64,000 nt of DNA from Candidatus Binataceae bacterium (GCA_015478645.1 JADMIL010000009.1:4574-68573), one strand, 5' to 3'. Numbered from the stretch's first letter, positions 20,571 through 60,379 are shown. Notes: generated by a model not told the origin, from the letters alone. Translations and numbers: made by a program.

Positions 20571-20591
20571 GCCCTTGGCCGGGACCGCTAT

Positions 20592-36151: not shown

Positions 36152-37987
36152 TCAGTCGCTGTCGGCGTCGTCGCTATCGCCGGCGGCGGAGGGCAATACG
36201 CCGACCACGCGCGAATACTCGAACATCCCGGCGCCCCGCGCGTCGCCCATCTGGTAGGTCGCGAAGCCGAGCGAGGTGTGGATGCGGGTGGCGTCGAGGC
36301 CGGGCCGCGAGAGCGTCATGAAGTTGTCGGCGCGCCCGCTGAGCGTCGTGGCCACACCGTCATGCAATGTGATCGCGGCGTGAATTGGGCCGGGACGCGC
36401 GCCGGGCACAGGCGTGTCCAGATCGATCGCGCCAAGCTCGCATTCGCGCCAGGCGCCGGCGTCGAGGATGCGCGCGGTGCAGGCTTGCGGGGCGCCGTCG
36501 AAGGTCATGGTGCGGGCCTCGAGCGCGGATTGCGCCGCGCCTCCGCTGGAAAAGCATGCCCAGAGCATCCGGCGCGTGGTGAAGCGCTGAGCTCCGAGTC
36601 CCAGGCATGAGGTGCCGACGCGGGCGACTGCGTCGATCTCACGGCGCACGCCGCCGACCGTCAACGCGCCGCGCAGGCGGCCGAACCGCGCCGTGCCGGC
36701 ACGGGCTGCCGTGGCGAGATCGCTGTCGCCCGGCGCGCTATCGTCCGCGGAAGCGTCGCACGCAGGCGCGCCGCAATCGTCGAGTTCAATCGTTGCCGCA
36801 AGCTCCATCGCGGTGTCGAGTTGCCCGCCGGCCAGCGCGCGCTCGACGCTCAAGTAGGCCGCGCCGTCGTCGACCACCATCGCCGGGCCGCGAAAGCTGA
36901 GTCCGCCGCGGCCGCCCGCCAGGGTCATGCTCAGCGGACCGAGATGAATCTGCGCACCGGCAAATTCGCTCTTGCCTTCACCGGTGAACAGCGCTGCGTG
37001 GCATCCGTCGAACATCACCATGATCCGCGCGCCCGCGGCGCCCGCGCCGAAGTCGAAACTCGCCATCCCGCCTACGCGCGCATCGGGGTCGTAAAACTCC
37101 ACACCGATGCGCATCGCGGCGCCCGCCGGTGTGGCTGACACGACGCGGGCGGGACGCGGCCGCGCGTCGCGCACGACGATCATCGCCGGCGCCGCCGCAG
37201 GCGACCCCATCGATGACGCCGACGTCGCCGATGACGAAGATGCGGTGGCGGGTGCGAAGGCCTCGGCGATCGCGTCGAGATTGGACGCGCGCAACGCCCC
37301 GGGCATCCGCACGGCGACCGACATTTCGAGTTGCAGCGCATCGATCGCGCCGTGCGCGGCGAGCGCGGCAAGCTCGCGCAGCGCGGCAAGCTCACTCGCG
37401 CAATGGCGCTGGGTGAAAGCCTGGAGCAGGTTCTGACTCGCGCCGCCGGGATAGCGCAGGCCAAAGGTCGGGATGATGCCGGCGGTCGTGAGGCGCGCGG
37501 CGAGCGCGGCGACCGGTCCGTTGATGAATCCGTCGCTGGCCGAAACGTGGGCGCCCGCGGGTGGCCGCAGACGGCCGCCGGCTTCGCGCAGGCCGAGTCC
37601 CAGATCGACGCGCGGCTCGATCACGTTCCATCCGTGAATCAAGAGCACGGTCGCCCGGCCATAACGGCGGGTGATCGCGGCGACGCGCCCCACGATCAGA
37701 TCGATCAGCCAGGGCGCGCGCTGGGCGAGCTGCGCCAGGCGGTTGCAGTCGAGTTCATTGCGATCCATCGCGGCGTTGATCAAGGCCGGCGCGCCAAGCC
37801 GGCGCGCGAGTTCCCGCGTGATCGCGGCGGTCTCGAGATCGTTGACCTTGGGATGGAGCGTGGCGCGGGCGGCTGCGCCGGCCCGTCCGCCGTGTGGCGC
37901 GATCAGCAGGAGCGGCGCGTCGCCGTCGATGATCTCGAGCCAGGGTTCGGGTCCGCTGCCGGGCGCGGCGATCGCATCCATCGGCAT
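36152..37987 (-). CDS. Fusion protein: N-formylglutamate-amidohydrolase-like (FGase family) N-domain plus a ~330-aa domain of unknown function
   Basis: 611 aa. The N-terminal motifs LLLIAPHGGRAG, VNDLETAAITRELA, DRNELDCNR and VLLIHGW resemble the PHxG / DxNR / IHS motifs of FGase-family hydrolases. I recognise no family for the C-terminal half. Its ATG directly abuts the pcs stop codon. Confidence 0.55.
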   Translation of the reverse strand: MPMDAIAAPGSGPEPWLEIIDGDAPLLLIAPHGGRAGAAARATLHPKVNDLETAAITRELARRLGAPALINAAMDRNELDCNRLAQLAQRAPWLIDLIVGRVAAITRRYGRATVLLIHGWNVIEPRVDLGLGLREAGGRLRPPAGAHVSASDGFINGPVAALAARLTTAGIIPTFGLRYPGGASQNLLQAFTQRHCASELAALRELAALAAHGAIDALQLEMSVAVRMPGALRASNLDAIAEAFAPATASSSSATSASSMGSPAAAPAMIVVRDARPRPARVVSATPAGAAMRIGVEFYDPDARVGGMASFDFGAGAAGARIMVMFDGCHAALFTGEGKSEFAGAQIHLGPLSMTLAGGRGGLSFRGPAMVVDDGAAYLSVERALAGGQLDTAMELAATIELDDCGAPACDASADDSAPGDSDLATAARAGTARFGRLRGALTVGGVRREIDAVARVGTSCLGLGAQRFTTRRMLWACFSSGGAAQSALEARTMTFDGAPQACTARILDAGAWRECELGAIDLDTPVPGARPGPIHAAITLHDGVATTLSGRADNFMTLSRPGLDATRIHTSLGFATYQMGDARGAGMFEYSRVVGVLPSAAGDSDDADSD

Positions 37988-38713
37988 TCAGGGCACCCGG
38001 TGCGCGGCGCGGCGCGCCGGGTCGGCATAGAGGACGAACGACATCACAAAGTAGTAAACGACGAAGGCGAGCGACGTGTAAAGCGCCACGCGGCTGTATG
38101 CGGGGAGCGTCGCGATCACGACGGCGGTGGCAATCGCCCAGATGACAGCCAGTGTCAGCGTGAGCGGGCGCATCGCGGCCGTGCGGCTCGGATAGATATA
38201 GCCGATCGGCACGAAGACCATCGCGGCCAGAATCGCGACGATGACGCCATTGAGCGCGGGCACGAGACCGAGACAAAACAGATAGAGCGCGACGATATTC
38301 CAGTACGACGGGAAGCCGCGGAAGTAGTGGTCGGGGGTCTTGGCGTCGCGGTGGCAAAAGCCGTAGCCGCTCGCGACCATCACGCTCGCGGTGATTGCAA
38401 AACCGCTTGGCCCTTGCGGCAGAATGCCCGCGCGCAGCATCAACAGCGCCGGTGCGGCGACGTAAGTCAGATAGTCGACGACGTTGTCGAGCAGCGCGCC
38501 ATCGAATTGCGGGATGCGATCGCGCACGCGCAGCGCGCGGGCGAGTGTGCCGTCGGTCGCGTCGATCGCGATCGCCACGCCCATCGCGGCGAACGCGGTG
38601 CGCCATTCGCGGTCGGCGATGCAATTGAGGGCGAAGAGTCCGGCGACCGCACCGAGTGCGGTGTAAAGATGCACCGTCCAGGCGAATGCGAGGAGGATGC
38701 GGTCGCGCGCCAT
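37988..38713 (-). CDS. pcs: Phosphatidylcholine synthase (CDP-alcohol phosphatidyltransferase family)
   Basis: 241 aa from MARDRILLAFAWTVHLYTALG. DATDGTLARALRVRDRIPQFDGALLDNVVDYLTYVAAPA and TPDHYFRGFPSYWNIV closely parallel rhizobial Pcs (DGIDGPIARK...NWSGDTLDNVIDYVTYVLLPA; DEYFFSGFPVVWNMV), recalled from memory. Confidence 0.85.
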   Translation of the reverse strand: MARDRILLAFAWTVHLYTALGAVAGLFALNCIADREWRTAFAAMGVAIAIDATDGTLARALRVRDRIPQFDGALLDNVVDYLTYVAAPALLMLRAGILPQGPSGFAITASVMVASGYGFCHRDAKTPDHYFRGFPSYWNIVALYLFCLGLVPALNGVIVAILAAMVFVPIGYIYPSRTAAMRPLTLTLAVIWAIATAVVIATLPAYSRVALYTSLAFVVYYFVMSFVLYADPARRAAHRVP

Positions 38714-38736
38714 CGTCGCCGCCTGCCTGCCCGCGA

Positions 38737-39270
38737 TCAGCGATCCGGCTTGAAGCCGCGCGGCCCGAAGTGATCTTCGAGCACGGTCATGAAGGGACCG
38801 CAGGCGCGCCGCTGTTTGACCAGCGCCATCGCCTCGTCGAGCGAAAGTCCGCCGTGCGCGCGCAGGTAGGCGATCGCGAGCGTGGGCGCGCGGTTGAGGC
38901 CGGCGTTGCAATGGAGAAATACGCGATGGCCCGCGCCGAGCAGCGCCGCCAGATCGTCGAGCGCGGCGACCAGCCGATCAGCCATGTCGTCGGCACTGCC
39001 GTCCTGGATCGGCGTGCGCACCAGACTGATCCGATGGCGCGCGCAGACCTCGCGCAGCGCGTCGATATCGATCGCGTTGATGCGCAGGTCCTCATCGTCC
39101 TGCAGATTATGAATCGCGGTCACGCGATGCTCGCGCGCGAGCCATTCGATATCGTCGACACGCGGGTATTCGCCGACCAGCAGATGCGGGGTGATCTCGC
39201 TGACGGTCGGCCGCACGTCGCCGCGCGTGGGGCGCGGTCCGTTATCGCGTCGTGGGCTAAACCATTCCAT
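38737..39270 (-). CDS. Dual-specificity (Cys-based) phosphatase
   Basis: 177 aa. Active-site loop FLHCNAGLNRAPT (HCx5R). No Shine-Dalgarno sequence is evident, and an AT-rich palindrome lies directly upstream. Confidence 0.8.
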   Translation of the reverse strand: MEWFSPRRDNGPRPTRGDVRPTVSEITPHLLVGEYPRVDDIEWLAREHRVTAIHNLQDDEDLRINAIDIDALREVCARHRISLVRTPIQDGSADDMADRLVAALDDLAALLGAGHRVFLHCNAGLNRAPTLAIAYLRAHGGLSLDEAMALVKQRRACGPFMTVLEDHFGPRGFKPDR

Positions 39271-39274
39271 GGTT

Positions 39275-39287
39275 ATAAATTATTTAT
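39275..39287. promoter_or_regulatory. Perfect AT-only palindrome ATAAAT-T-ATTTAT directly upstream of the phosphatase start codon
   Basis: Lies 4 nt from the ATG at 39270, in the only sizeable intergenic gap (82 nt) of the lipid operon. Confidence 0.3.
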
Positions 39288-39352
39288 GCGCTTTGGGCGG
39301 GGGAAACGAGCGCGCGGCCCGGCGTGCGCGGCGTGCTCTGCCTTTGGCGCGA

Positions 39353-42300
39353 TCAACCTTCGGCGCCTTTGGCCGCATGCGGAGTGCGGTGGCGCGGCGG
39401 CGCTTCGGCCGCGTGATCAATTACGTGATCGTCCGAATGATCGGTCGCATGTTCGATCGCGGCGCCATCAGCAGCGCCGGCGGCGATCGCGGCGGCATGC
39501 TTGGGATCGTGGACGTTGGCTTGGGTGGCCAACGAGCGGCGCGCGGCGCGCGGTCGATCCCCGGCGAGTTCGACGATGGCGGCGCGCAGATGCTCGGCGA
39601 GCCGCCGATAGGCCGCCGCGCCGGTGGTGCCTTGCGCAACGTCGAGCAGTTCCGCCGCGCCGATTACGCGGCCGATGCGCACCTCGACTGGCGCATGGCG
39701 TGGCACGAGCGCGCCTTTGCCCAGCACCTCAAAGGAGCCGCGAATATGGATCGGAAGCACGTCGCATCGCGATTGCATCGCGAGGAAGCCGGCGCCGCTC
39801 TTGAATTCGTGGATCGCGCCGTCGGGTGAACGGGTGCCTTCGGGAAACATCAGGACGCTGCGGCCGGCGGCGAGTTCGGCGAGCGCGCCGTCGAGCGAGT
39901 CGAGTTGCGAGCGCTCGCGATCGATCGCAAGCAGGTGGGTAAAGTTGCGCGCGACGAAGCGGCGCAGCGGCGTCTTGAAGAAATAATCCTTCGCGGCGAG
40001 CACCACCAGATCGCGGCCGGCGGTGCCGAGCGCATATGCGATCAGGCCGAAGTCGAGATGGCTGGCGTGATTGGCGACGACGATCACGTTGCGGTTCGCC
40101 GGGATATTGCCGCGGCCCATCACGCGCGGCTTGAGCCACGAATCGAACGCCGCGCCGATCGAGCGCCGCAGCGCGAACTCACCGATGCGCCGGAGCGGGG
40201 CCGGGAGTTCGACGGTGAAGGGCTCGGCGAAGCGCGCGTAAGAGGGTAGGCGAGGCCGTACGGTGCCGTCGCCGGCCAGGCGTTGCAGATCGCCGACCGT
40301 CGCGGCCGCGGAAAGCTCGTCGGCGGTGAGCTCGCGGCCCGCCTTGACGGCGATCTGTTCGGCGAGTTCGGCCAGTGCGAGCGAGTCGAGTCCGAGATCC
40401 TCGATGAGCCGCGTGCCGGTGCCGATTGGTACCGTGCCGATCGCGACTTGCGCCAACGCCTGCGCGAGCCACGGGACGATTTCGTCGCCGGTTACCGCGG
40501 CCTCGCCGCCGCGATTGTCGAGCGGACGATCGAGGATCTCGCGCAGCCGCGCGGCGACTTCCGCGCGCTTGATCTTGCGTGTGCGGGTGCGTGGCAATTC
40601 GGTCTCGCTGAAGCGCAGGATGCGCACGCGGCTGTGCGGGTTGAGCCCGGCGCCGACGATCGCGAAGTGCGCGCGCACGCGGTCTTCGATCGTGCGGCGG
40701 CTCTCGCCGCGCGCGTAGGCCGGCACGACCAGCGCGGCCACCTGCTCGCCCGCGCCGATAGTCAGTCCGGCGACCGCGATCTCTTTGATAAAATGGCTGT
40801 GGCCGTAGGCCTGTTCGATCTCGTCGATATAGATATTGTTGCCGCCGGCGTCGACGATGACGTCCTTGGCGCGGCCCACGATGTAGAGCCGGCCGGCGTC
40901 ATCGAAGCGGCCGAGGTCGCCGGTATGCAGCCAGCCGTCCTTGAGCACTTCGGCGGTCGCGGCCGGATTGCGGTAATAGCCGCTCATCACGTTGGGGCCG
41001 CGCGCGATGATTTCGCCGATGCCGCCCGCATCGGCGGGGCTGTCGATGCGCACCTCGAGCTTGCCGAGCGGCTGGCCGACCGAGCCCGCAATTAGCGGCT
41101 CGTCGGGCCGCGCGACGCTCAGCACGGGCGCGGCCTCGGTCAGGCCGTAGCCTTCGAGCAGCTTGATGCCGAGGTCGTGGAAAAAGGTGGCGACGCGCTG
41201 CGGCAAGGCCGCGCCGCCGCTGACGGCGAGCCGCAGATGGCCGCCGAGCGCGTTGTGCGCCGGCCGAAAGAGCATTGCGCCAAAGTTGACGTGATAGTCC
41301 CGGTCGAGGCGCCGATTGAGGTTGCGCAGGCGATCGAAGGCCGCCGCGAACAGCGGGCCACGCCCCTCGACTTCGTCGACGATCCGCCGGTGCACCGCTT
41401 CCCATAGCGCCGGCACGCCGATCAGCGCGGTCGGCCGCACGTCGGCCAGCGTGCGCGACAAATTGGCGGCATCTATGCCCAGCGGGTAGACGATGCGCGC
41501 GCCGCTGGCAATCGGCAGCAGCAGGCCGCAGGTGAATTCGAGCGTGTGATGGAGCGGCAGGATCGAGAGCACCGTGTCGTCGGCGCCGAGCGCGAAGACT
41601 CGCGCGAGCATCGCGACTTCCGCGGTGAAATTGCCGTGCGAGAGCATCACGCCCTTGGGCGTGCCGGTGGTGCCGGAGGTGAAGACGATTGACGCGAGCG
41701 TCTTACGCTCGGCGGCGACCGGCGCGCCCGGCGCGGTGCGCAATACGAAGGGGCGCTGCAATTCGCCGATTTCAATTTCGACGGCTCCAGGAGCGGCGGT
41801 GCGGACCGCCTTGCCGAGCCGCTTGCGGCAGGCGGACGAAATCAGCGCGGCCCGCGGCGCGGCGATGCGGCCGATGGCGGCGAGTTCGTCGGGGGCGATC
41901 AGATGGTCGAGCGGCACGGCGACCGCGCCCGCGTAGAGAATCGCGAAGTAGGCGATGACCCAGTCGGGCGAGTTCTCCGCGATCAGCAGGACGCGATCGC
42001 CCGGCTTGATCGCGCGTCCACCGAGCATCAGGCCGCCGCGATGGGCGCGGTCGCGCAGCTCGCGATAGCTGATCGGCGTGCGTTGGCCGGCGAGTTCGCG
42101 CGCCTCGAGCGCGGGTGCGGCGCCGAATCGATGGGCCGCGCTGTCGAGCATTTCGATCAACGTGCGATGGCGCGGGACGCCGCGCGGGCGCGCCCGCGTA
42201 TGCAATTCGAGCTGGCCGAAGATATGGCGGCGCAGGCCCGGCAGATGGACGTCGATCCAGTAGCGGGCCCAGTCGATCTTTTCCGGATGATAGGGATGGC

Positions 42301-43855
42301 GCGCGGCGTCGGCGGGTTCGAGCGTGGCGTAAAGCGCGCGGATATTTTTGCCGTGAAAGGTGTAGACCAGATCCTGGATATAGGGCCGGTAGACCTCGAC
42401 CAGCGATCGCGCCATCGCGGTGTTGTCGGCTAGCTTGGCGATCCGATCCTCGAACTTGCGCGCCGGCGCCGACTCCTCGCCCATCACCGTGCGGGCCAGC
42501 GCGGCGGCCTGCTTGAGCATCGCGGGCAGCGTCGAGCTGAACATCTCGTAGGTGCGATGGGACACCACAACGGCTTCGAGATGCGGTGCGAGCTTGCCCA
42601 TCGGACCGCCGCGCCGCCGATGCTCGCGGCGGTTGCTGAGCGCGGTCAGCTCCACCAGCCGGCGCATCGGCAACGGATTAACGTCGGAGGTGCAGAGCTG
42701 ATAGATGGGCTGATGGCGGCCGAGCAGGAGTGCGGCCAGGATCGGGACGATCGCGTGGGCCGCGAGATCGACCGGGATGACGTCGAGCACCAGGTCGCCG
42801 CGCGCCGGATAAAATCGATAGCCGCGGCCCGCCAGATAAGTCAGCGGCGCGCTGGTGTTAACGCCCTGGTTCCATCCCGGAAGCGGGTCGCAAAGCGCGC
42901 TCTCGATCACCGACGGACGGACCACGGTCGCCGCGACCGCGCCGCGCGCGGTCATCACGATCTGCTCGCCGAGGCTCTTGGTATAGCTGTAGGTGTTGGG
43001 CCATCCCCAACTGAGCGCGCGGCGGCGGCCGATCGCCTTGAGCCGATCCTCGACCCAGCTTTTGCGCCGCGCCTCGATCGAACGATCATGATGGTCCGCG
43101 CGGTCGTGATGGTCGCCGGCGGCGTCGCTCTCGCGATCGCCGGCCGCGCCGAGATGGAACTCGGCCAGGTGCGACTCGTCGTGCGATTCGGCTTCGACGC
43201 GATCGATCGCGGCCTGCGCGTCGCGCAGTTCGCGGCGCAGATTGAAGTTGCGCCGTCCGTTGGGACACCAGTCGGTCGGCAGGTCGTCTTCGTAGCGCTG
43301 GCCGTCGGCAACGCCCGCGGCATAGCAGGTCGAGACGTGAAGGAGGGCGGCGCCGTGGGTGCGGCAGAACTCGACGACGTTGCTCACGCCGTCGGCGTTG
43401 ATTGCGATCGCCTTGGCCAGCGAGGCCTCGAAGTTGACCAGCCCCGCGCAATGGATTACGGCGTCGATCGATCCGGTACGCGGCATCCCGGCGCCGTCGG
43501 CGGCGAGGCCGGGCTCCGTGATATCGCCCGCGATCACCGCGACCTTACCCTCGACATACTGGTCGAAGCGCGTGCCCAGGCGCTCGCGCAGAGGAGCCAG
43601 CGCGGCCGAGTCGAGAATCTCGCGGCGCAAGCGATTGAGGCTCGAGCGGCGATCGCCGCGAATCAGCAGATAGATGCGATCGAGTTCGGGGTGATGTTCG
43701 AGCAGGATCGCGAGCAGCACTTTGCCGAGAAAGCCGGTCGCACCGGTAATCAGCAGACGGCGCTTGCGCAGTACCTGCTCGAGCGGCGGCATCGCGCCCG
43801 CGGCGGCCGCGGGTTTGCGTACACGGGCGCGACGCGGAGCGGGCCTATTCGACAT
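39353..43855 (-). CDS. Multidomain lipid megasynthase: fatty-acyl reductase (NAD_binding_4), AMP-dependent acyl ligase, ACP, 1-acyl-glycerol-3-phosphate acyltransferase (ElbD-like)
   Basis: 1500 aa. The Rossmann motif ITGATGFLGK (aa 36-45) and YSYTK (aa 289-293) mark the reductase domain. The AMP-binding motifs are IVFTSGTTGTPKG (aa 723-735), EGYGLTE and WLHTGD. The phosphopantetheine site is LGLDSLA (Ser1158). The PlsC motifs are NHASHLD (H1263-x4-D1268) and FPEGTRS (aa 1337-1343). Confidence 0.9.
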   Translation of the reverse strand: MSNRPAPRRARVRKPAAAAGAMPPLEQVLRKRRLLITGATGFLGKVLLAILLEHHPELDRIYLLIRGDRRSSLNRLRREILDSAALAPLRERLGTRFDQYVEGKVAVIAGDITEPGLAADGAGMPRTGSIDAVIHCAGLVNFEASLAKAIAINADGVSNVVEFCRTHGAALLHVSTCYAAGVADGQRYEDDLPTDWCPNGRRNFNLRRELRDAQAAIDRVEAESHDESHLAEFHLGAAGDRESDAAGDHHDRADHHDRSIEARRKSWVEDRLKAIGRRRALSWGWPNTYSYTKSLGEQIVMTARGAVAATVVRPSVIESALCDPLPGWNQGVNTSAPLTYLAGRGYRFYPARGDLVLDVIPVDLAAHAIVPILAALLLGRHQPIYQLCTSDVNPLPMRRLVELTALSNRREHRRRGGPMGKLAPHLEAVVVSHRTYEMFSSTLPAMLKQAAALARTVMGEESAPARKFEDRIAKLADNTAMARSLVEVYRPYIQDLVYTFHGKNIRALYATLEPADAARHPYHPEKIDWARYWIDVHLPGLRRHIFGQLELHTRARPRGVPRHRTLIEMLDSAAHRFGAAPALEARELAGQRTPISYRELRDRAHRGGLMLGGRAIKPGDRVLLIAENSPDWVIAYFAILYAGAVAVPLDHLIAPDELAAIGRIAAPRAALISSACRKRLGKAVRTAAPGAVEIEIGELQRPFVLRTAPGAPVAAERKTLASIVFTSGTTGTPKGVMLSHGNFTAEVAMLARVFALGADDTVLSILPLHHTLEFTCGLLLPIASGARIVYPLGIDAANLSRTLADVRPTALIGVPALWEAVHRRIVDEVEGRGPLFAAAFDRLRNLNRRLDRDYHVNFGAMLFRPAHNALGGHLRLAVSGGAALPQRVATFFHDLGIKLLEGYGLTEAAPVLSVARPDEPLIAGSVGQPLGKLEVRIDSPADAGGIGEIIARGPNVMSGYYRNPAATAEVLKDGWLHTGDLGRFDDAGRLYIVGRAKDVIVDAGGNNIYIDEIEQAYGHSHFIKEIAVAGLTIGAGEQVAALVVPAYARGESRRTIEDRVRAHFAIVGAGLNPHSRVRILRFSETELPRTRTRKIKRAEVAARLREILDRPLDNRGGEAAVTGDEIVPWLAQALAQVAIGTVPIGTGTRLIEDLGLDSLALAELAEQIAVKAGRELTADELSAAATVGDLQRLAGDGTVRPRLPSYARFAEPFTVELPAPLRRIGEFALRRSIGAAFDSWLKPRVMGRGNIPANRNVIVVANHASHLDFGLIAYALGTAGRDLVVLAAKDYFFKTPLRRFVARNFTHLLAIDRERSQLDSLDGALAELAAGRSVLMFPEGTRSPDGAIHEFKSGAGFLAMQSRCDVLPIHIRGSFEVLGKGALVPRHAPVEVRIGRVIGAAELLDVAQGTTGAAAYRRLAEHLRAAIVELAGDRPRAARRSLATQANVHDPKHAAAIAAGAADGAAIEHATDHSDDHVIDHAAEAPPRHRTPHAAKGAEG

Positions 43856-45485
43856 CCGCGATCACCAGCGGGGGTAGATGAAGATAGGTGATGCTCGCCG
43901 AACGGCCGTGATCGGCGGTGGCCATCGCGATCGCCTCGTCGAGCGTATCGGCCGCCTCCCAGCCCATCCGCGCGGCGACCTGCGGCTCTTCGCAGCCGGC
44001 TGCGATCACGCGGCCGACGTGCTGGCGCGCGGGCTCGCCCCAATACCACATGTAGAACGGATGCACGCCGTGGTAGGCATGGCCGAAGCGATACATATGC
44101 TTGTAGGTCGGATTGATCGCGAACTCGGCCTCGAAGCGCTTCTCCAGTTGCATCGCGTCGGTGGTCTCGGCCAGGCAGCGATGGAAAAACTCGATGTAGC
44201 TCGGATGATGCTCGGGGTGAAATTCGTCGCGCAGCGGATGACAGATGATCATCGTGCCGCCCGGCTTCACCAGCGGCTGATTGCGATACATGTTGAACAG
44301 GTAGCCCAGCCCGGTGCACTGTACGAGGACCGGATTCATGATCGAGTTGACGTTGTACGGACAGATGTACGGCACGCCGACAATCAGGATGTCAGACTGG
44401 CCTTTGACCGGCACCGCGTATTGCTGGAAGACCCGCGCCAGGGCCTGCCGATGCACCGCTTCGGTCTCGCCCGCCCACACGCCCGTCAAACCATAAGGTG
44501 CGGCGTACTGATGCATCATCTGGCGGCGGGTGTCGTTGGAGAGATTGCCGAGCGTCCAGCGGAAACCCTTGAGCCGCGCGCGATCCCAGTCGTTGAACTG
44601 GTCTTCGTTCTTTTGCAGAAAGTCGAGCATCCCGCCGTACATCTGGGTATTGACGGCGGTCTCGATGGAAAAAACGTTGAGCTGCGCATTGACCAGCCGG
44701 CCCATCCGGTTGGCCGAGCTGTGCAGTGCCGAGCGCTTGGGATCCATGTAGGAGTGGCTGTCGCGCAGAGTCGCCGGATTATGATGATGGCGCAGGCTCT
44801 GGTAGGGCGCGAGACCGACGGCGACCGATTTGTGCCCGCCATCCATCGGCACCAGATTCAAGTTGAGATAGATGACCAGGTCGGATTCGGCGGCGCGCCG
44901 CGAGAGCCAGACCTCTTCGCCATGATCGGTCTTGCCGAGCATCGCGAGTTCGGCGCGGTTTTCGCCGTCGAAGTTGTAGAGCCGGTCGGGCCAGTACTGC
45001 TTGAAGGCGCGCTCGCCGACCATCCGGCGAATCTCGCTCTCGGTCATCCGCCGATGGAGCGCGGTGGCGACGATCAGATGAACGTCGTCGACGCCGTAAT
45101 CGGCCAGCGTCTGGAGCACCTGGTTGAGCAGGCGCTCGCGGATATCGGGCCGGCGCATCGGCGGCAGCGGCAGGCTGATGTCGTCCAGCGCGATCGTCAC
45201 GCGCATGTTGGGGTTGAGTTGCGCGAAGAGCGGGTCGGCGTTGAGCGGACGCAGCAGCGCATAGCGAATCGCGGCGTCGGGGTCGGGCAGGGCGTCGAGC
45301 GGCGGCGGCGGATAGATCACCCGGGTGCCGGCCGGCAACTTCTCGAACATGAACTCGTCGCCGTAGGGAATCAGGCGCGGCGCGGAGCGGCGGTTAAGGG
45401 TCACGACCAGGTCGCGGCGCGCGCCAACCTCATGCTTGAGCTCAGCCTGCTTGAGCTCTTTGAGCTTAGCTTCGGGCCGCGCCAT
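43845..45485 (-). CDS. LarA-like protein (DUF2088, lactate-racemase N-terminal domain family)
   Basis: From MARPEAKLKE. Segments ALDDISLPLPPMRRPD, IVATALHRRMT and PMDGGHKSV resemble the LarA D-x-TRP, ATGxHR and GG-x-K regions. Overlaps the megasynthase start by 11 nt and the HAD gene stop by 20 nt. Confidence 0.65.
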   Translation of the reverse strand: MARPEAKLKELKQAELKHEVGARRDLVVTLNRRSAPRLIPYGDEFMFEKLPAGTRVIYPPPPLDALPDPDAAIRYALLRPLNADPLFAQLNPNMRVTIALDDISLPLPPMRRPDIRERLLNQVLQTLADYGVDDVHLIVATALHRRMTESEIRRMVGERAFKQYWPDRLYNFDGENRAELAMLGKTDHGEEVWLSRRAAESDLVIYLNLNLVPMDGGHKSVAVGLAPYQSLRHHHNPATLRDSHSYMDPKRSALHSSANRMGRLVNAQLNVFSIETAVNTQMYGGMLDFLQKNEDQFNDWDRARLKGFRWTLGNLSNDTRRQMMHQYAAPYGLTGVWAGETEAVHRQALARVFQQYAVPVKGQSDILIVGVPYICPYNVNSIMNPVLVQCTGLGYLFNMYRNQPLVKPGGTMIICHPLRDEFHPEHHPSYIEFFHRCLAETTDAMQLEKRFEAEFAINPTYKHMYRFGHAYHGVHPFYMWYWGEPARQHVGRVIAAGCEEPQVAARMGWEAADTLDEAIAMATADHGRSASITYLHLPPLVIADVE

Positions 45486-46284
45486 CGAGCTTCTCCTCGG
45501 TCCAATCTTGCGCCGCAGTGCGCGGATCGAGATCGCCGGCCGCGCCTCGGCGCGCCTGCGCCTTGGCAAAGCGCAGCACGGGCCATTGGCGGCTCTGCGC
45601 GATCGCTCGCAGGCGCCGGTCGGGATTGACCGCGACCGGATGGCCCAGGGCGATCAGGAAAGGCAGGTCATAGCGCGAATCGGCATAACCCCAGCATTTG
45701 GCCAGGTCGACGCGGTGTTCGGCGGCGTAGGTCGCACACCAGGCGGCTTTGGCTTCACCCGCCATCACCGGCTCGCGCAGGCGGCCGGTCGCGCGGCCGC
45801 GGCTGTAGATGAGACGGTTGGCGACGAAGGTGTCGATACGCAGGCGGCTGGCCAACGGCGCAACGATGAAGTCGGGCGAACCGGTGACCAGCACGGGCGC
45901 GAAGCCGGCGGCGCGGTTGGCCTCGATAATGTCGAGCGCGCGCGGATACAGATGGGCCATCAGGATGCGCTCGCAATACTCTTCGCCCAGCGCCTCGAGG
46001 CGGTCCTGCGAGAGGCCTTTGAAGGTCTCGTAGAGGGCGACGTTGAGCAGATGGCGATCGCGCCGCTCGGCCATGTAGAGCATCGGCAGGCGTGCGACGA
46101 AGGCGGCGAGATAGCTGACCCGCCCGCTCCATTCGCCGAGATTGGCGAATATAAAGAACGCTGCATGTACCAGGTTGAGATCCATCAGGGTGCCGTCGAG
46201 ATCGTAAAACGCCGCGGCTTTGGGCACGCCGCGCGCGGCGCGCGCACGCGACCTGGGAGTTCTGGTTTTTGGCTGAACTGACAT
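45466..46284 (-). CDS. HAD-superfamily subfamily IB hydrolase (SerB/PSPase-like phosphatase)
   Basis: 272 aa. Motif I FYDLDGTL, motif II LVTGSP, motif III/IV GEAKA...YADSRYDLP. Confidence 0.8.
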   Translation of the reverse strand: MSVQPKTRTPRSRARAARGVPKAAAFYDLDGTLMDLNLVHAAFFIFANLGEWSGRVSYLAAFVARLPMLYMAERRDRHLLNVALYETFKGLSQDRLEALGEEYCERILMAHLYPRALDIIEANRAAGFAPVLVTGSPDFIVAPLASRLRIDTFVANRLIYSRGRATGRLREPVMAGEAKAAWCATYAAEHRVDLAKCWGYADSRYDLPFLIALGHPVAVNPDRRLRAIAQSRQWPVLRFAKAQARRGAAGDLDPRTAAQDWTEEKLDGAARS

Positions 46285-46285
46285 G

Positions 46286-46942
46286 TCAGTCTATTTTCGG
46301 GCCATAAAAAATTTGATCCTGTGCAGGCGTCGCAGCGCCGAGACCGGCGGCTTCGAGTAATTCGGGCCGGGCGACGCCGCGCAGGCCGAAATCGAGCACC
46401 TCTTCGGCCAGCGCGCCAACGTCGCGCCGCTGATCGCGCGACAACTGGCCGACGATTTCTTTGACCCCGCCCAGGATGCAATAGGCGACCGGGCGCGTGT
46501 CGCATTCGCGCACCAGGTTCATCTCGATACCGAGGTCCAGCGAGCGCTGGATCTGATCCGTCACGCGCTCGTAAAAGTCGTGGATGCGTGCGTCGAGGTC
46601 ACGGTCGAAGCCGGTCGAATGGTTGAGCAGAATATCGGTCAACTCGCGCTCGGCCAGCACGAAGGTCAGGACGCGCTTGAGGTTCGAGCGCAACTGCTCA
46701 ACCGGGTCGGGCTCGCCGGGACCGATCTTGAGCCGGCGGATGCGGCTGCGCAATTCGCCGAGCGCCTGTTCAAGCAATTCCGCAAAGATGTCACGTTTGT
46801 TCTGGAAGTAAAGATAGAACGTGCCGCGGGCGATGCGCGCCTGCGCGATGATGTCGGCGATATTGGTGCGGTGATAGCCCTTACGGGCAAACAGCCGCTT
46901 GGCGTGGCGCAGAACCTGCGCGCGCCGGGCCTGTCGCTCCAT
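46286..46942 (-). CDS. TetR-family transcriptional regulator
   Basis: From MERQARRAQVLRHAKRLFARKGYHRTNIADIIAQARIARGTFYLYFQNK (HTH). GGAGG lies 4 nt upstream of the ATG. The stop is 1 nt from the HAD gene start. Confidence 0.88.
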   Translation of the reverse strand: MERQARRAQVLRHAKRLFARKGYHRTNIADIIAQARIARGTFYLYFQNKRDIFAELLEQALGELRSRIRRLKIGPGEPDPVEQLRSNLKRVLTFVLAERELTDILLNHSTGFDRDLDARIHDFYERVTDQIQRSLDLGIEMNLVRECDTRPVAYCILGGVKEIVGQLSRDQRRDVGALAEEVLDFGLRGVARPELLEAAGLGAATPAQDQIFYGPKID

Positions 46943-47093
46943 GCATCCTCCGCGTGGCCGGACAGTAGCGGCGGGAAGTTTAGGAGTCAAACCTGCCATG
47001 CGCCGCTATCCACAAATTATCAACCGTCAATCAACAGTTCCCGATCGGCCGGCCGATTCCGGAGGCTCGAGCGGGCCGTCGCGTCGCCCAGCG

Positions 47094-47693
47094 CTAGGGA
47101 CACGCCGCCGGACAGGTCGCAGGGTCCTGATCGACGCCGATCTCCACCGTTTGACTGATGAGGCCGGCATCGGTGACCGTCACACAGGTGCATCCGGGCG
47201 TTACGGCGACGAATTCGCCATTACCCAGGTAGTTGATGACGCCAGTAAAGTTGGTGCTCGGCGGAAAGGTATTCCAGCTGGTGCTGCCGTGATTGGTCAC
47301 GTCGTGATAGGTCTGCGCCACCGTCTTGGACTTCCTGCTGAACGAGCCCTGCGCATTGAATTGCACGGTGTTTGGCACCGTGGTTGGTATCGGCGACGGG
47401 ATCACGGTGGTGCAGAAGACATTGGTGCTACCCGGCACACACACCGCCGCTGCCGCGACCGGACTGCATTGTGGGGTTGGCGACGGCTTGGGCGTCGGCA
47501 CACTGGTCGGCGTGGGGGTAGGGGTAGGCACGGGCGGTGACCCGGAGCAAATCGCGACCGCGATAATCCCGTTAAAGAACTGGGGCACGGTGGTCACCGG
47601 AAAGCCGCCGCCGCCACCGCAACTCAACATTAGTGCCGCTGCCAGAAAGGACAGCACCGGCACCAGCACCAAGCATCGTCGCCACCAATTCAT
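47094..47693 (-). CDS. Lipoprotein with Pro/Thr linker and Cys-containing beta-rich C-domain
   Basis: 199 aa from MNWWRRCLVLVPVLSFLAAALMLSCGGG (lipobox LSC). Linker PPVPTPTPTPTSVPTPKPSPTP. The longer 287-aa track ORF reads through a terminator hairpin and is rejected. Confidence 0.6.
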   Translation of the reverse strand: MNWWRRCLVLVPVLSFLAAALMLSCGGGGGFPVTTVPQFFNGIIAVAICSGSPPVPTPTPTPTSVPTPKPSPTPQCSPVAAAAVCVPGSTNVFCTTVIPSPIPTTVPNTVQFNAQGSFSRKSKTVAQTYHDVTNHGSTSWNTFPPSTNFTGVINYLGNGEFVAVTPGCTCVTVTDAGLISQTVEIGVDQDPATCPAACP

Positions 47694-48237: not shown

Positions 48238-51200
48238 ATGACTCGCCTGAAGATCAGAGCGCGGCTCGACCGCATCAACGCGCGCGCCTCGGCCATCGCC
48301 CACGCCCGCCGCACGCGCCGCGTGGCGATCGGCGTGGCCATCACGATCGTGGTCTATGGTTTGCTGGGATTTATCGCCTTGCCGATGATTCTGCGGCATG
48401 TCGTGACCGGGCAGGTCGCGACCAGCCTGCACCGACCGGTGAGCGTCGGCAAAATTGTCTTCAATCCGTACACCTTGCGGCTTCAGGTAGACGATCTGCG
48501 GGTGGGCGAGCGCGAGGGAGCGCAAGCGTTCGCTGGCCTGGGGCATCTGGACGTCAAGGTCTCATGGACGTCGCTGTTTCGGCTGGCCCCGGTCATCGGT
48601 GAAGTCAAGCTCGAGCGTCCGCAGGTGCATGTCGTGCGGGTCGCGGAGAACCGCTTCAACTTCTCCGATTTAATCGCCCCATCCGCATCGCCGAAGCCGC
48701 CGCCGGGCAAGCCGACGCGATTTGCGGTATCGAACATTCAACTCCACCAGGGGTCGGTGCTATTCGACGACCAGGTCACCGGCCAGCAGCACAAGATCGA
48801 GAAAATCGAACTCGACGTGCCGTTCGTGGCCAACTTGCCGGCCGACGTCAATATCTACGTGCAGCCGTTGCTCGCGATGGTGATCGACGGCAGTCCGCTG
48901 CGGGTGGCGGGCAAGGGGCGCCCGTTCAACGCCGAACCCGAGTCGATCATGCAGGTAAATCTGCGCGACCTGAAACTTTCGCAGTATCTTGCCTATGTGC
49001 CGCGCAAGCTCCCGGTCAAGCTCCCGCAGGGGACGCTGTCGGCGCACCTGCTGGTCCATTTCGTCAACGCGTTTGCTGGACCGGCGATTCGGATTGGTGG
49101 CGCGGTGACGCTCGATCAGATCGATCTGCGCGACGCCGCCGACGCACCTCTGCTCGCGCTCAAGAGCGCGGTGGTGAACCTCGACGACGTCGATACGCTT
49201 CAGAACTTCGCCCACGTCGGCGCGATCACGCTCGACGGTCTCGAGACCTACGTGGTGCGCAATGCGGACGGCACCACCAACCTGACGCCATTGACCGCCG
49301 CTAATCCGCCCGCCGCCACGTCAGTGCCGGCTCGCGCATCTTCGCCACAGGCTTCGCCCATTCCGCAGGGCACGACGGCCGCGCCAGCGCCGCCGGTGAA
49401 GGCCGCCATCGTCGCGGCGAAGGTGGCCCCGTCGGCGCGCCCGGCACCGGCGATCGCGACACCGGTAATTGCGCCGCCGTCACCCGTCGCGACGGTCAGT
49501 GCGGCCATGCCAATCGCGTCGGCGAGTGCGTCGATGACCCCGGCCGCAGCGTCAACCGCGGCGAGCTTAGCACCGTCAATCATGGAGACGGCTCCCACAA
49601 AGACGGCGAGCGGTGGCACGGCGACTAGCGGGACGAGCGGCGCGTTCAATCTGATTCTCGATTCGTTCGCGCTGACCAACGGCGCGGTGCATCTGACGGA
49701 CCACAGCGCGGCGGTGGCGACCACGGCCAACCTGCAGGCGATCCACGCGACGCTGACCAACTTGCGCACGGCGCCGCAATCGCCACCGGCCCCCTTCGCG
49801 GTCGCTGGCACGCTGAGCGGTGGCGGCAGCGTCGCGATCAAGGGTGTGCTGAACTTGCTGCAATCGCAGGTCACGACCGACCTCACGCTGGCGCAAATCG
49901 ATGTGCCGGCCTTGCAGGGCTTCGCGCAGACTTTCCTCGCGGCGAAAATCGCGACCGGCAAGCTGAACGTGCAGGCCAGCGTCGCGACGCAATTCGCGGC
50001 CGGCAAGTTCAATGTTCACGTTGAGCCGGCGACCCTTGCGCTCGACGATTTCGATATCCGGCCGCCGGGCGCACATCAGCCGCCGATCACCTGGAAGACG
50101 ATCGCGGCGACGATCGGCCAGGTCGATCTCGCGTCGCATCAGGCGACCGTCACGGAGCTGCGCACCGACAGTATCCATCTGTCGGTGCTGCGCGATCGCA
50201 AAGGGGCATTGTCGCTCGCGTCGTTAATCCGCAAGCCGGGCGAACCGCCGGGCGCCGCTTCCGCACCGGAGAACCGCCCCGCGCGACGGCCGGCGCGTGA
50301 GGCACATTCGCGCGCTGAAATGGCACGGGCCGAGCGGGCGCGCCGGGCAGCGGAGCGCGCGGCGTATCGGACGCAGGAGGAGCGCAGGCTTGCGGCGCGG
50401 ACGCACGGCGGTATTCGCGCAGCCGCCAAGCCGGCCACACCGGTGGTCTCGCCCACGCCGCCGGCGGGCGGATGGCAGTACAAGATTGCGGCGGTCACGC
50501 TGGAGAAATCCGCGATCGCGATTGAAGATCATACCGTGGCGCGGCCGGTCAAGATCGGCGTCGCGCCGCTCAATATCCGGCTCAAGGATGTCACCAGCGA
50601 TTTCGCCAAGCCGTTTTCGCTTGAGCTCGACGGCACGGCGGACAAGACCGGCACTTTCGCGATCGACGGCACCGCCGCGATCGAGCCGCTCAAGGCCGAC
50701 CTGCGGGTGACCACGCGGCGGCTCGACGTGGCGCCGGCCACGCTCTATGCGCAGAGCAATCTAAACGCGACGATCACCAGCGCCGCACTGACCACCAAGG
50801 GTGCGGTGGCGCTCGCCGACCCGGGTGGCAAGTTGCGCGTGAGCTATCGCGGCGACGCGACGCTAACCAACGTGCGCGTGCTCGACAAGCTGACCAGCGA
50901 TCTGTTCCTGCGCTGGAACGCGCTGAGCGTCCATCGAATCGATTTCCGGATGGGCGAGGGTCAGCCCAGGATTCATATCGGGGCGATCGCGCTCGACGAT
51001 TTCTACACCCGGCTGATTCTGAATGCCGACGGCCATCTGAACGTGAGCGATATCACGTCGTCGGCACGCCAGGCGCCGACTTCGCTGACCCGTCCGGGGG
51101 CCAAGCCACTGCCCGCGCCATCCGCACCTAGCGCGCCGGCGCCGGGGCCATCCGAGGCGGGGGCGCCCTCCGCGCAGACCTCGGCGACGGCAACTCCGGC

Positions 51201-58357: not shown

Positions 58358-58535
58358 GTTTGTCAATCGTGCCAGATTGCCCGGATTATGGCGACAGCGC
58401 ATCGTTTCGTCGCCGGATCGACGGAATCACGACTGCGTTTTTCGAGCGCAACACGGCATTCGCTCGGCGACGCGCCGAATGACGCCTTGGAATCGAGCGA
58501 TAATTCCTTTAGATGATTGAGGGGTGTCGACCTGC

Positions 58536-58612
58536 GCGCCCGTAGCTCAACTGGACAGAGCATCGGACTTCGGATCCGAGGGTTGGGGGTTCAAATCCCT
58601 CCGGGCGCGCCA
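58536..58612 (+). tRNA. tRNA-Arg (anticodon TCG)
   Basis: 77-nt cloverleaf folded by hand. Acceptor GCGCCCG/CGGGCGC, D-arm GCTC-AACTGGACA-GAGC, anticodon arm TCGGA-CTTCGGA-TCCGA (positions 34-36 = TCG), T-arm GGGGG-TTCAAAT-CCCTC, discriminator G, encoded CCA. Confidence 0.9.
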
Positions 58613-59002: not shown

Positions 59003-60379
59003 ATGAAGATCATCGCGATTGCCGTCGGGCTGCTCTTTTTAATTCCATTCGCGAGGCCCGTGCTGGCACAGGATGGGTCATCGGCGGGCAAGCCGGCCGT
59101 GTCGTCCAGTGCCGCTCCGGCTGGGGCGGCTTCCGCGCCGGCGCCGGCGGCCGATTCATCGGGCAAGACGGCTGCGGGAATTCCGGTCGGGACGACGATC
59201 ACTGCGCAAAACTGGCGGGATTACCAACAGTATATGCCAGCGGGGATGATCGGGTTGTTCCAGGGTGAATACTATTGGAAGATGCCGGCCGATGTCCAAA
59301 TGACTATTGGCCCGACGATTATCCATCCGCTGCCCCGGAATTACGTGGCGGCGACCGAGAAGTATGCCTCGCAGATACGGATCGTGGACCTGCCCACGGG
59401 CGGACTGAGTATGCAGGGCTACCAGGGTGGCATGCCATTCCCGGATCCGGCCGAACCGCATCGCGGATGGAAGATTCTCGCCGACGTGTGGTACCGGTAC
59501 CTGCCGCATCTGATCGTCGATACCTATGGCACGTCATGTAGCCAGAACAATCTTGGCAATGTCAGTTGCAGCGCGGATGAACTGGTATTGAAACAATTGA
59601 GCTTTAACACCGACCCCGGTATTTCAGCCACGATTCCCGGGGCCGGCGACACGTTCTCGACCGAATGGTTCATGACGGTGGAGCCCGAGAATGAGCGATA
59701 CAATGCGAGCGTGGTCATTTCTTATACCGATCTGACCAAAGCACAGGCGGTCTATGCTTTCGTACCGTCATTGCGGCGCGCTCAGCCGGTCGCTACCAGC
59801 GCGCGCTGCTCGCAGTATTCCGGGACTGACTATACGTCCGATGATTATCGCTACGGCTTCAACGCCAACCTGACGCAAATGCAGGTCGCGGACCTTGGCG
59901 ATAAGAAAATCCTGGCGCTGGTCGACGCCGATTTGCCCACCGGAGCATTTCCCGACGGGTTCGATATGCCGTTGGGATGGCCCAAGCCTTCGTGGGGGAA
60001 ATGGCAGGTGCGGGACGCTTATGTAATCAGCGCGAGCAAGGTGGCGTCGCAGGCCGAAGGATATTGCTATGGCAAACGCGTCATGTACGTGGACAAGGCG
60101 TCCGGCGGGGTTTTGTGGCTCGACCTGTATGACACCGAAATGAACTACTGGAAATTCGGTGGATTCGTGCTGAAGACCATCGATGTGCCCGGGGTCGGGC
60201 CGGTGAATTGCAACGGCGCCGCGGTCGAGATGATGTGGGATATGCACAACCAGCATTCCAGCTTTTTTTCCGATCCGGCCTTGAATCATCCGCTGTATGT
60301 AAATCAACAGGCGCCGGCCGAATTCAATGATCTGACGCGTTTCAGTACCGCGAGCGGGCTGAATCAAATCATGCAGTAG
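59003..60379 (+). CDS. DUF1329 domain protein (LolA-like fold, secreted)
   Basis: 458 aa. Signal peptide MKIIAIAVGLLFLIPFARPVLA. ITAQNWRDYQQYMPAGMIGLFQGEYYWKM...GGMPFPDP resembles the DUF1329 N-terminal signature, from memory. Confidence 0.6.
   Translation: MKIIAIAVGLLFLIPFARPVLAQDGSSAGKPAVSSSAAPAGAASAPAPAADSSGKTAAGIPVGTTITAQNWRDYQQYMPAGMIGLFQGEYYWKMPADVQMTIGPTIIHPLPRNYVAATEKYASQIRIVDLPTGGLSMQGYQGGMPFPDPAEPHRGWKILADVWYRYLPHLIVDTYGTSCSQNNLGNVSCSADELVLKQLSFNTDPGISATIPGAGDTFSTEWFMTVEPENERYNASVVISYTDLTKAQAVYAFVPSLRRAQPVATSARCSQYSGTDYTSDDYRYGFNANLTQMQVADLGDKKILALVDADLPTGAFPDGFDMPLGWPKPSWGKWQVRDAYVISASKVASQAEGYCYGKRVMYVDKASGGVLWLDLYDTEMNYWKFGGFVLKTIDVPGVGPVNCNGAAVEMMWDMHNQHSSFFSDPALNHPLYVNQQAPAEFNDLTRFSTASGLNQIMQ

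Follow-up and report, generated by a model that had tools for sequence, protein, structure and literature searches.

An elb-type ether-lipid gene core adjoins a Pcs-family enzyme gene in a conserved Candidatus Binataceae cluster

Introduction

What might a bacterium make with a gene cluster that places an ElbD-like lipid megasynthase beside a homologue of phosphatidylcholine synthase (Pcs)? The question is raised by seven consecutive minus-strand open reading frames (ORFs) at positions 36152–46942 of a stretch of 64,000 nucleotides (nt) from a Candidatus Binataceae bacterium (GCA_015478645.1, JADMIL010000009.1:4574-68573; this entire stretch is hereafter called the window). Binataceae is an uncultured family of the phylum Binatota. 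An earlier note on this DNA had read the seven genes as one operon under TetR control, dedicated to an unusual and possibly ether-linked choline phospholipid, and had put it forward as a candidate for an undescribed system.

The reference point for such a cluster is the elb locus of Myxococcus xanthus (elbA–E, corresponding to MXAN_1525-1529; Lorenzen et al. 2014, as cited in PMC9131029). In the review that cites it (PMC9131029), ElbD is described as a FAR-ACS-ACP-AGPAT protein (i.e., fatty-acyl reductase, acyl-CoA synthetase or ligase, acyl carrier protein and glycerol-backbone acyltransferase), with its gene flanked by elbB (HAD), by elbC, whose function is given as unknown, and by the NAD-dependent epimerase genes elbA/elbE. 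The same review reports that M. xanthus depends on elbD for its ether lipids, alkyl and vinyl alike, that the ACS and ACP activities of M. xanthus ElbD have been shown in vitro, and that almost all ElbD-like homologues outside the myxobacteria lack the reductase domain.

The present analysis identifies the window cluster as a lineage-specific variant of this known elb system and not as a categorically new one. It consists of a Binataceae form of the elb cluster, a known type of head-group enzyme and two uncharacterised accessory enzymes.

A seven-gene cluster conserved throughout Binataceae

ORF listing and translation yielded the following features, given in the direction of transcription with the evidence for each assignment (aa, amino acids):

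46962–46990, minus strand: sigma-70-type cluster promoter (cross-species conservation)
46286–46942, minus strand: TetR-family regulator, FadR-like, 218 aa, first gene of the cluster
45466–46284, minus strand: HAD-IB phosphatase, ElbB orthologue, 272 aa (Pfam HAD, TIGR01490)
43845–45485, minus strand: LarA homologue of groups LarAH14/15/16, ElbC orthologue, 546 aa (NCBIfam NF052592, Pfam Lar_N)
39353–43855, minus strand: megasynthase, ElbD orthologue, 1500 aa (Pfam domains and motifs)
39271–39352, minus strand: 82-nt spacer between two probable modules, with an AT-rich promoter-like element before the dsp ATG
38737–39270, minus strand: Cys-based dual-specificity-type phosphatase (DSP), 177 aa (Pfam DSPc)
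37988–38713, minus strand: Pcs-family CDP-alcohol phosphatidyltransferase, polytopic membrane protein, 241 aa (CDP-OH_P_transf, Pcs motif)
36152–37987, minus strand: FGase-like/AttH-CrtC-like fusion protein, 611 aa (AlphaFold2 and Foldseek)

On re-reading the sequence, the seven genes and all junctions given in the earlier note agreed with ours. The TetR and HAD genes are separated by 1 nt, and the HAD and LarA-like genes overlap by 20 nt when Met29 of the longest HAD ORF is taken as the start, a position that coincides with the beginning of the homologue alignments. The LarA-like and megasynthase genes overlap by 11 nt (or are separated by 52 nt with the database start, 21 codons downstream), the megasynthase and DSP genes are 82 nt apart, the DSP and Pcs genes 23 nt apart (with the Pcs ATG at 38713), and the Pcs stop codon abuts the start of the 611-aa gene. 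The domain calls made in that note were likewise recovered: a Pfam scan matched six of the seven proteins (TetR_N/TetR_C_24; HAD; Lar_N; NAD_binding_4 and Sterile, AMP-binding, PP-binding and Acyltransferase; DSPc; and CDP-OH_P_transf), and the 611-aa fusion was recognised via its fold.

To see how far this arrangement extends, one genome per species was scanned, which yielded 80 ElbD-type loci (61 Binataceae-type and 19 non-Binataceae), and all seven window proteins were compared with these loci by tblastn. TetR-HAD-LarA was present in every Binataceae-type locus with enough upstream flank (53/53), and DSP-Pcs-611 lay on the same strand in 48 of the 50 loci with enough downstream flank, one locus (L053) missing this trio within its 5.7-kb downstream flank. 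All seven genes, in the same order and on the same strand, were found in 46 of the 48 Binataceae species loci with enough flank, so the linkage for which the earlier note had proposed a neighbourhood survey is kept family-wide. The seven-gene arrangement is not a matter of chance. The TetR, DSP, Pcs and 611-aa genes were found in none of the 19 non-Binataceae ElbD-like loci. Moreover, over 120 database clusters are 65–74% identical to the megasynthase, those with a source name being mostly Candidatus Binataceae, and a literature search pairing Binat* with ElbD returned nothing.

An orthologue of the elb core

A close counterpart of the upstream half of the cluster was found in Anaeromyxobacter paludicola (AP025592.1, locus L081), where the gene order is SDR – HAD – Lar_N (537 aa) – ElbD (1582 aa) – SDR. 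This is a canonical five-gene elb cluster in which a LarA homologue holds the elbC position. A LarA-like gene also lies directly upstream of ElbD in three more Myxococcota loci (L052, L067 and L076), and in the window, as in L081 and L067, elbB (HAD) and elbC directly precede elbD and share its strand.

The window megasynthase is 41.8% identical to A. paludicola ElbD over 1492 aa and contains, in Pfam terms, NAD_binding_4 (residues 36–369), Sterile (479–546), AMP-binding (571–961), PP-binding (1130–1190) and Acyltransferase (1244–1371) domains, with the catalytic motifs GATGFLG, YSYTK, TSGTTGTPKG, GLDSL, NHASHLD and FPEGTR all intact. The likeness to ElbD proposed earlier thus extends to full-length orthology with the same domain order. 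The HAD protein matches Pfam HAD with 117 bits and TIGR01490 with 116 bits (cutoff 98), carries its DxDxT motif (DLDGT) at residue 28, and shares 36% identity with A. paludicola ElbB and 39% with the HAD protein of L067. By these comparisons, the HAD, LarA-like and megasynthase genes are assigned as orthologues of elbB, elbC and elbD, so that the HAD and LarA-like genes are no new neighbours of an ElbD-like gene but belong with it to the already described elbB-elbC-elbD core. As a separate observation, one 580-aa database protein (P0288) contains both Lar_N and NAD_binding_4, i.e., an ElbC-ElbD fusion or a read-through, and this pairing fits a tight coupling of ElbC and ElbD.

The two SDR/epimerase genes of the canonical cluster were not recovered. 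With the L052 and A. paludicola proteins as queries, no ElbE homologue was found in the 64-kb window (ElbE and ElbA may be encoded elsewhere in the genome), the L052 ElbE had no homologue in any of the 61 Binataceae loci, and A. paludicola ElbA gave just a weak partial match to the reductase domain of the window ElbD. Some species have ca. 1 kb of additional sequence separating elbD from dsp; this was considered as a candidate ElbE and rejected, the gene being Zn-phospholipase-C-like (see below).

Compared with the myxobacterial elbA–E clusters, the window cluster thus has the same elbB-elbC-elbD order, overlapping or abutting junctions and the same four-domain ElbD order, but lacks the ElbA/ElbE SDR/epimerases, has a TetR gene added upstream and DSP, Pcs and FGase/AttH fusion genes downstream, belongs to another host phylum (Binatota), and in 22 of the 61 Binataceae species has a phospholipase C (PLC)-like gene as an extra. 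Another point of reference is the FAR1/GNPAT/AGPS pathway (eukaryotic, and minor in myxobacteria), whose fatty-acyl reductase and glycerol-backbone acyltransferase correspond to two ElbD domains, whereas the cluster holds no homologue of AGPS (the FAD-dependent alkyl-dihydroxyacetone-phosphate synthase).

ElbC as a single-histidine LarA homologue

The ElbC protein of the window scored 837 bits against NCBIfam NF052592 (LarAH14/15/16; cutoff 740) and is 55.5% identical to A. paludicola ElbC (55–56% to the L081 and L067 counterparts). It keeps the ribose-binding aspartates (D101/D102), the catalytic H144, the K219 that binds the cofactor (nickel-pincer nucleotide, NPN) and the nickel ligand H235 (cf. 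Asp72, His108, Lys184 and His200 of Lactobacillus plantarum LarA), and these residues are invariant in Binataceae and Myxococcota ElbC homologues. The second catalytic histidine (His174 in L. plantarum LarA) is missing, the position being occupied by Asn210 and, in L033, by Thr. Since this histidine is needed for racemisation, ElbC is probably not a racemase. LarAH groups 14 and 15 have been reported to lack it, and the group-14 residue pattern agrees with the window ElbC; moreover, the LarAH14 of Frankia was inactive in all seven racemase/epimerase assays (PMC7583248).

The best PDB matches over both domains were the single-histidine LarA enzymes 9q2u and 9q3j (LarA_Sp and LarA_Bw; PMC12611868), which, like Frankia LarAH14 (PMC7583248) and ElbC, have the NPN Lys/His pair and one catalytic His. 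Nevertheless, their identity to ElbC is low and their other active-site residues differ, and their gene neighbourhoods point towards carbohydrate metabolism, unlike groups 14–16 with their elb-type lipid context. Specifically, the neighbours listed for LarAH14-16 comprise AGPAT, HAD-type phosphatase, thioester-reductase, acyl-CoA-synthetase and epimerase COGs (Desguin 2020, Table S1; PMC7583248), with the AGPAT, HAD, reductase and acyl-CoA-synthetase genes adjacent in 88–100% of the surveyed genomes (PMC7583248, Table S1). No LarB, LarC or LarE was found among the window ORFs scanned with Pfam.

On the strength of sequence and gene neighbourhood, the ‘unknown’ ElbC of the ether-lipid field is equated here with the orphan LarAH14-16 group of the nickel-pincer field. 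Our literature search found no paper tying LarAH14-16 to ether lipids, and the sole searchable elbC paper gives ‘unknown function’.

The Pcs-family enzyme and its two companions

Five NCBIfam Pcs equivalog models matched the Pcs-like protein over its full length with 136–210 bits (the next family scoring 28 bits), while their lineage-specific cutoffs of 300–440 were all missed. Its identity is 44.6% with the Pcs of Legionella adelaidensis, 38.9% with that of P. aeruginosa and 30.6% with S. meliloti pcs, and its DGx2ARx12Gx3Dx3D motif (DGTLARALRVRDRIPQFDGALLDNVVD, at residue 54) is spaced as it is in S. meliloti and Legionella Pcs; the 12-residue spacer in this motif is reportedly a hallmark of Pcs. 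It also shares a KT..F.GFP..WN block with Pcs and is predicted to be polytopic, having several hydrophobic segments in which the Kyte-Doolittle mean over 19 residues is 1.5 or more. When it was searched by tblastn against plasmid and replicon records, the annotated matches were Pcs-type synthases only, with four more where PLSDB lists no gene. The protein is accordingly classed as a member of the Pcs family with predicted substrates, and the Pcs call of the earlier note stands, on a Pcs-type motif and 31–45% identity to annotated or characterised Pcs. Similar in size to the bacterial Pcs of S. meliloti, Legionella and P. aeruginosa, polytopic like them and with the motif in common, it differs from them in scoring 210 bits at best against the cutoffs and in having DSP, the 611-aa gene and elbD as neighbours; none of these three was seen next to pcs in the S. 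meliloti and Legionella loci examined. On the L. adelaidensis plasmid (L088, 2956–6179), pcs was observed four genes from a LicD-family phosphocholine transferase, a further gene neighbourhood with a link to choline.

The DSP call was also upheld: DSPc scored 54.9 bits (cutoff 33.5) and the CX5R (HCx5R) loop is present as HCNAGLNR at residue 120. Its nearest solved structures are LSF2 (E-value of 6e-18), SEX4 and laforin, i.e., phosphatases with non-protein substrates. A PTPMT1-like phosphatidylglycerophosphate phosphatase was considered and rejected, as PTPMT1 is not named among the 60 PDB matches listed and plant glucan phosphatases are closest.

For the 611-aa protein, single-sequence searches of Pfam, NCBIfam and PDB gave no match, nor did a PDB search with a 34-sequence profile. 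An AlphaFold2 model (pLDDT of 79, pTM of 0.81) consists of two domains. The N-terminal one (residues ~17–244) is an FGase-like alpha/beta domain (Foldseek match to 2q7s with an E-value of 1.5e-4 and a probability of 1.0), and the C-terminal one (residues ~292–597) is an AttH/CrtC-like double beta-barrel of the DUF7064 type, with Foldseek matches from 1e-8 to 5e-6 that include Fsa2 (1e-8), AttH 2ich (1e-7), 25-phosphosteroid lyase (6e-7), kievitone hydratase (3e-6) and CghA. The FGase-like fusion proposed earlier is therefore borne out by fold and has gained a second, AttH/CrtC-like domain. FGase (PF05013) gave no Pfam match to the window protein and 12–20 bits with homologues (cutoff 28.9), and the modelled N-terminal domain is best regarded as FGase-like in fold only, not as a family member; DUF7064 was matched by close homologues with 25.5–32.8 bits (cutoff 24.7) and by the window protein with 14.8 bits. 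The motifs PHGG, DCNR and HGW are invariant, and the family is very small, with 334 representatives out of 1.84 billion.

Distant homologues of the 611-aa protein were seen directly downstream of enoyl-CoA hydratase and MFS transporter genes (L082/L083, 8808–11800; L086, 5839–9959), with KshA-like and KstD-like genes nearby in the same loci. Their sequence context hints that the wider family may act in the catabolism of a hydrophobic substrate.

Transcription and the boundary between elbD and dsp

The cluster promoter comprises a –35 box TTGACT (46990–46985), a 17-nt spacer and a –10 box TACTGT (46967–46962), followed by GGAGG and the TetR ATG at 46942. A consensus promoter scanner found no promoter, because the –10 box is weak; it was cross-species comparison that revealed one, as the spacing between TTGAC(A/T)-N17-TA(C/G)nnT and the TetR start is constant in nearly all of the 54 Binataceae loci compared. 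Because this conserved promoter falls inside the longer ORF, it supports the TetR start at 46942, as chosen in the earlier note. The regulator itself matches Pfam TetR_N (55 bits) and TetR_C_24, with the fatty-acid regulator FadR (Bacillus type) as its best NCBIfam match (67 bits, below the cutoff of 200), and it was found in all 53 evaluable Binataceae loci.

A further promoter-like element, AT-rich (GCATAAATAATTTATAACC), lies directly before the dsp ATG in the window, where no Shine-Dalgarno sequence is present, and a conserved AT-rich –10-like element was found 6–11 nt upstream of the dsp start in the compared loci, with or without the PLC gene, these too lacking a Shine-Dalgarno sequence. 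On the coding strand inside the cluster, no terminator-like site above shuffle expectation was detected. Finally, three loci are rearranged (L027 by an inversion, L023 by an insert of 7 kb and L061 by one of 1.8 kb). As these rearrangements break at elbD/dsp and the promoter-like element upstream of dsp is conserved, the locus probably consists of two modules, tetR-elbBCD(-plc) and dsp-pcs-611, which conservation suggests are probably co-transcribed by read-through, with the second module also expressible alone. Of the single seven-gene operon proposed earlier, the gene set and the tight spacing thus hold, whereas one transcription unit gives way to two probable modules.

In 22 of the 61 Binataceae species, a Zn-phospholipase-C/P1-nuclease-like gene (~290 aa) that is absent from the window sits between elbD and dsp, its start overlapping the elbD stop:

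L002:14377–15258: PLC-like gene
L014:14347–15204: PLC-like gene (20 other loci carry one too)

The encoded protein has a signal peptide followed by W-D-S-x-T-H, with the Trp at the predicted mature N-terminus. An N-terminal Trp after the signal peptide is a hallmark of the zinc-phospholipase-C-type family.

A possible ether-linked choline lipid, weighed against its alternatives

How could these genes work together? The reading that we favour, and to which we give even chances of being right, is that the synthesis of a 1-O-alkyl glycerolipid backbone is coupled to the attachment of a choline head group. In it, tetR-elbB-elbC-elbD (module A) would act as an orthologue of the myxobacterial elb core, and because of this orthology the ether-lipid role would extend to Binataceae. 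ElbD would adenylate a fatty acid and load it onto its own ACP (activities demonstrated only with the M. xanthus protein), its reductase domain would turn part of the acyl-ACP into fatty aldehyde or alcohol, and its AGPAT domain would acylate the glycerol-phosphate backbone, after which ElbC and the HAD phosphatase ElbB may complete the 1-O-alkyl-glycerol(-phosphate) backbone. The dsp-pcs-611 genes (module B) would supply the head group: a housekeeping CdsA encoded elsewhere would provide the CDP-activated (alkyl-acyl or diacyl) glycerol, which the Pcs-family enzyme would join with choline to give phosphatidylcholine (PC), or ether PC if the alkyl-acyl species is accepted. More speculatively, DSP would most likely free choline from phosphocholine or dephosphorylate a lipid intermediate, and the FGase/AttH-like fusion could be a lipid-binding tailoring or salvage enzyme. 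An action of DSP on phosphocholine would fit the optional secreted Zn-PLC-like enzyme, which in about a third of the species could release phosphocholine from external PC. The FadR-like TetR, transcribed from the conserved sigma-70 promoter, would control the cluster, with acyl-CoA as its probable effector. The product predicted in this way is 1-O-alkyl-2-acyl-glycerophosphocholine, and we infer from the genes an ether-linked choline lipid in Binataceae.

In favour of this coupling, all seven proteins keep their domains and catalytic motifs, the genes are tightly spaced on one strand and conserved as a set, and the insertion that separates the modules in 22 species is a phospholipid-related gene as well. 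Independent precedents are Acidobacteria SD4, with both ether lipids and phosphocholine lipids, and the occurrence in other phyla of elbD beside CDP-alcohol phosphatidyltransferases. A number of observations weigh against it. Neither the window nor any Binataceae locus has ElbE, which in M. xanthus contributes to the making of ether lipids. In 20 non-Binataceae ElbD loci (including that of A. paludicola), a regex motif scan turned up no CDP-alcohol transferase within 10 kb. The downstream housekeeping genes (parA/mrp-like, dksA, miaB and lolA) are as syntenic as the cluster, and since these genes are unrelated, conserved adjacency within one family is no proof of functional coupling. In all three rearrangements the break falls at the elbD/dsp boundary and spares dsp-pcs-611, and the promoter-like element upstream of dsp suggests independent transcription. 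The role given to DSP is a guess, because Pcs needs no phosphatase. Finally, the distant homologues of the 611-aa protein sit in catabolic contexts (MFS, enoyl-CoA hydratase and steroid/beta-oxidation-like genes), in which no link to ElbD, Pcs or lipid synthesis was found. Of the dedicated ether-choline pathway under TetR control that the earlier note had proposed, the conserved linkage holds, while adjacency has become weaker evidence given the equal synteny of housekeeping genes.

Some of these points speak for two independent modules that are adjacent by vertical synteny, a reading with a smaller but still appreciable chance of being correct. Here, dsp-pcs-611 would be a general PC or choline-salvage unit that acts on CDP-diacylglycerol from its own promoter, and tetR-elbBCD would make ether backbones with whatever head groups the cell uses. 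The elbD/dsp breakpoints in L027, L023 and L061 with an unbroken dsp-pcs-611, the promoter-like element directly upstream of dsp and the equally syntenic downstream genes would all follow, as would the occurrence of the elb core without Pcs in Myxococcota and of Pcs without elb in Proteobacteria. This independence is harder to reconcile with the shared strand and the lack of a coding-strand terminator-like site above shuffle expectation, with an adjacency kept in 48 of 50 species, and with the 22 species in which a phospholipid-related gene fills the gap and overlaps the elbD stop; moreover, the elbD clusters of sponge symbionts adjoin CDP-alcohol transferases, suggesting that the pairing recurs in other phyla.

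It is decidedly unlikely that the ElbD-like enzyme has no ether-bond role at all and instead serves Aas-like lysophospholipid reacylation, or provides the fatty aldehyde or alcohol from which wax or neutral lipids are built, with the LarA-like and HAD proteins acting on a small hydroxy acid or sugar phosphate. The NCBIfam acyl-[ACP]-phospholipid O-acyltransferase (Aas) models do match, although with 180–210 bits they stay far below their cutoffs (1221 and 1349), and this view can also draw on the missing ElbE, on the 2-hydroxy acids used by characterised LarA homologues, and on the fact that the reductase and acyltransferase activities of ElbD were never demonstrated in vitro (PMC9131029). However, the protein is a full-length orthologue, including the N-terminal reductase domain, of an enzyme that is genetically required for ether lipids, the elbB-elbC-elbD triad is kept across phyla, and Frankia LarAH14 was inactive in the seven racemase/epimerase assays. 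Even less probable, in our view, is a specialised signalling or secondary-metabolite lipid (e.g., a platelet-activating-factor-like alkyl-phosphocholine or a tailored lyso-lipid) with DSP and the fusion protein as tailoring enzymes. A dedicated TetR regulator, two accessory enzymes without a role in standard PC synthesis, a very small 611-aa family and the unusual lyase, hydratase and pericyclase chemistry of AttH/CrtC-fold enzymes would suit such a product, yet the conserved housekeeping neighbourhood and near-universal presence in the family are typical of core membrane functions, and the conserved gene set includes no transporter or export gene.

Within the ether-choline reading, the ether-forming step itself might fall to ElbC. 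In this proposal, which we consider unlikely, a nickel-pincer ElbC forms the ether bond without AGPS, in a Binataceae core wired to Pcs, DSP and an FGase/AttH-type enzyme. Starting from 1-acyl-glycerol-3-phosphate, as made by the ElbD AGPAT domain, ElbC would for a moment oxidise C2 to the level of acyl-dihydroxyacetone phosphate, replace the acyl group with the fatty alcohol that the ElbD reductase domain supplies, and return the hydride to give 1-alkyl-glycerol-3-phosphate in a redox-neutral manner, which in Binataceae would amount to a self-contained route to ether phosphatidylcholine. This would explain why ElbC has just one catalytic histidine, why AGPS and (in Binataceae) ElbE are missing, and why ElbC is more strongly conserved than ElbD.

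Relation to other elb clusters and implications

The nearest parallel to the linkage of elbD with a head-group enzyme comes from sponge symbionts (Acidobacteriota and Poribacteria), whose elbD/elbB-centred cluster families in some cases adjoin CDP-alcohol phosphatidyltransferases and in one clade a phosphatase, and have been interpreted as variants that diversify ether lipids (bioRxiv 10.64898/2026.06.23.733905). The terms ‘lactate racemase’, ‘DUF2088’, ‘phosphatidylcholine’ and ‘Binat’ do not occur in the text of that preprint. The earlier note had presented the linkage of an ElbD-like gene to a choline head-group enzyme as unseen; elbD beside CDP-alcohol phosphatidyltransferases is thus already known, and what remains particular is the TetR-DSP-Pcs-fusion set, found here in Binataceae only.

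The cluster predicts ether-linked, possibly choline-headed, membrane lipids in Binataceae, which are abundant uncultured bacteria of soil and peat; many of the Binataceae loci come from metagenome-assembled genomes of peat, palsa and soil. This bears on which organisms make the bacterial ether lipids found in soils, and places a predicted full-length ElbD pathway outside Myxococcota. Equating ElbC with LarAH14-16 would join two literatures that are unconnected in the papers searched, naming a concrete candidate for the ether-forming step, as yet unsolved, and placing an orphan group of nickel enzymes in a concrete physiological setting. DSP and the FGase/AttH fusion are likewise flagged as uncharacterised accessory enzymes linked to Pcs.

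Genes surrounding the cluster

Upstream of the TetR gene, a small ORF encodes a protein with a lipoprotein-type signal peptide (…ALMLSC GGGG), a Pro/Thr-rich linker and no Pfam match, and many Binataceae loci have a weak homologue of it upstream of TetR, though not at a fixed distance. Divergent from the cluster is a gene for a member of the AsmA/DUF748 family, a family of envelope lipid-transfer bridges; it was considered as a cluster member and rejected, being syntenic in one other locus only (L041). The region of lowest GC content (0.54–0.60 vs. ~0.66 in the window) follows further on and may be a foreign or envelope-related island. On the other side of the cluster, a 905-aa ORF matches a Cys/Met-metabolism PLP enzyme with residues 528–903 alone, and is probably over-extended in GC-rich DNA, as its N-terminal half has no match.

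47094–47693, minus strand: small lipoprotein-type ORF
48238–52434, plus strand: AsmA/DUF748-family protein, 1398 aa
54000–60500: region of lowest GC content
56042–58402, minus strand: 786-aa ORF without a Pfam match, within that region
58536–58609, plus strand: tRNA, within that region
59003–60379, plus strand: DUF1329 protein, within that region
18159–20876, minus strand: 905-aa ORF

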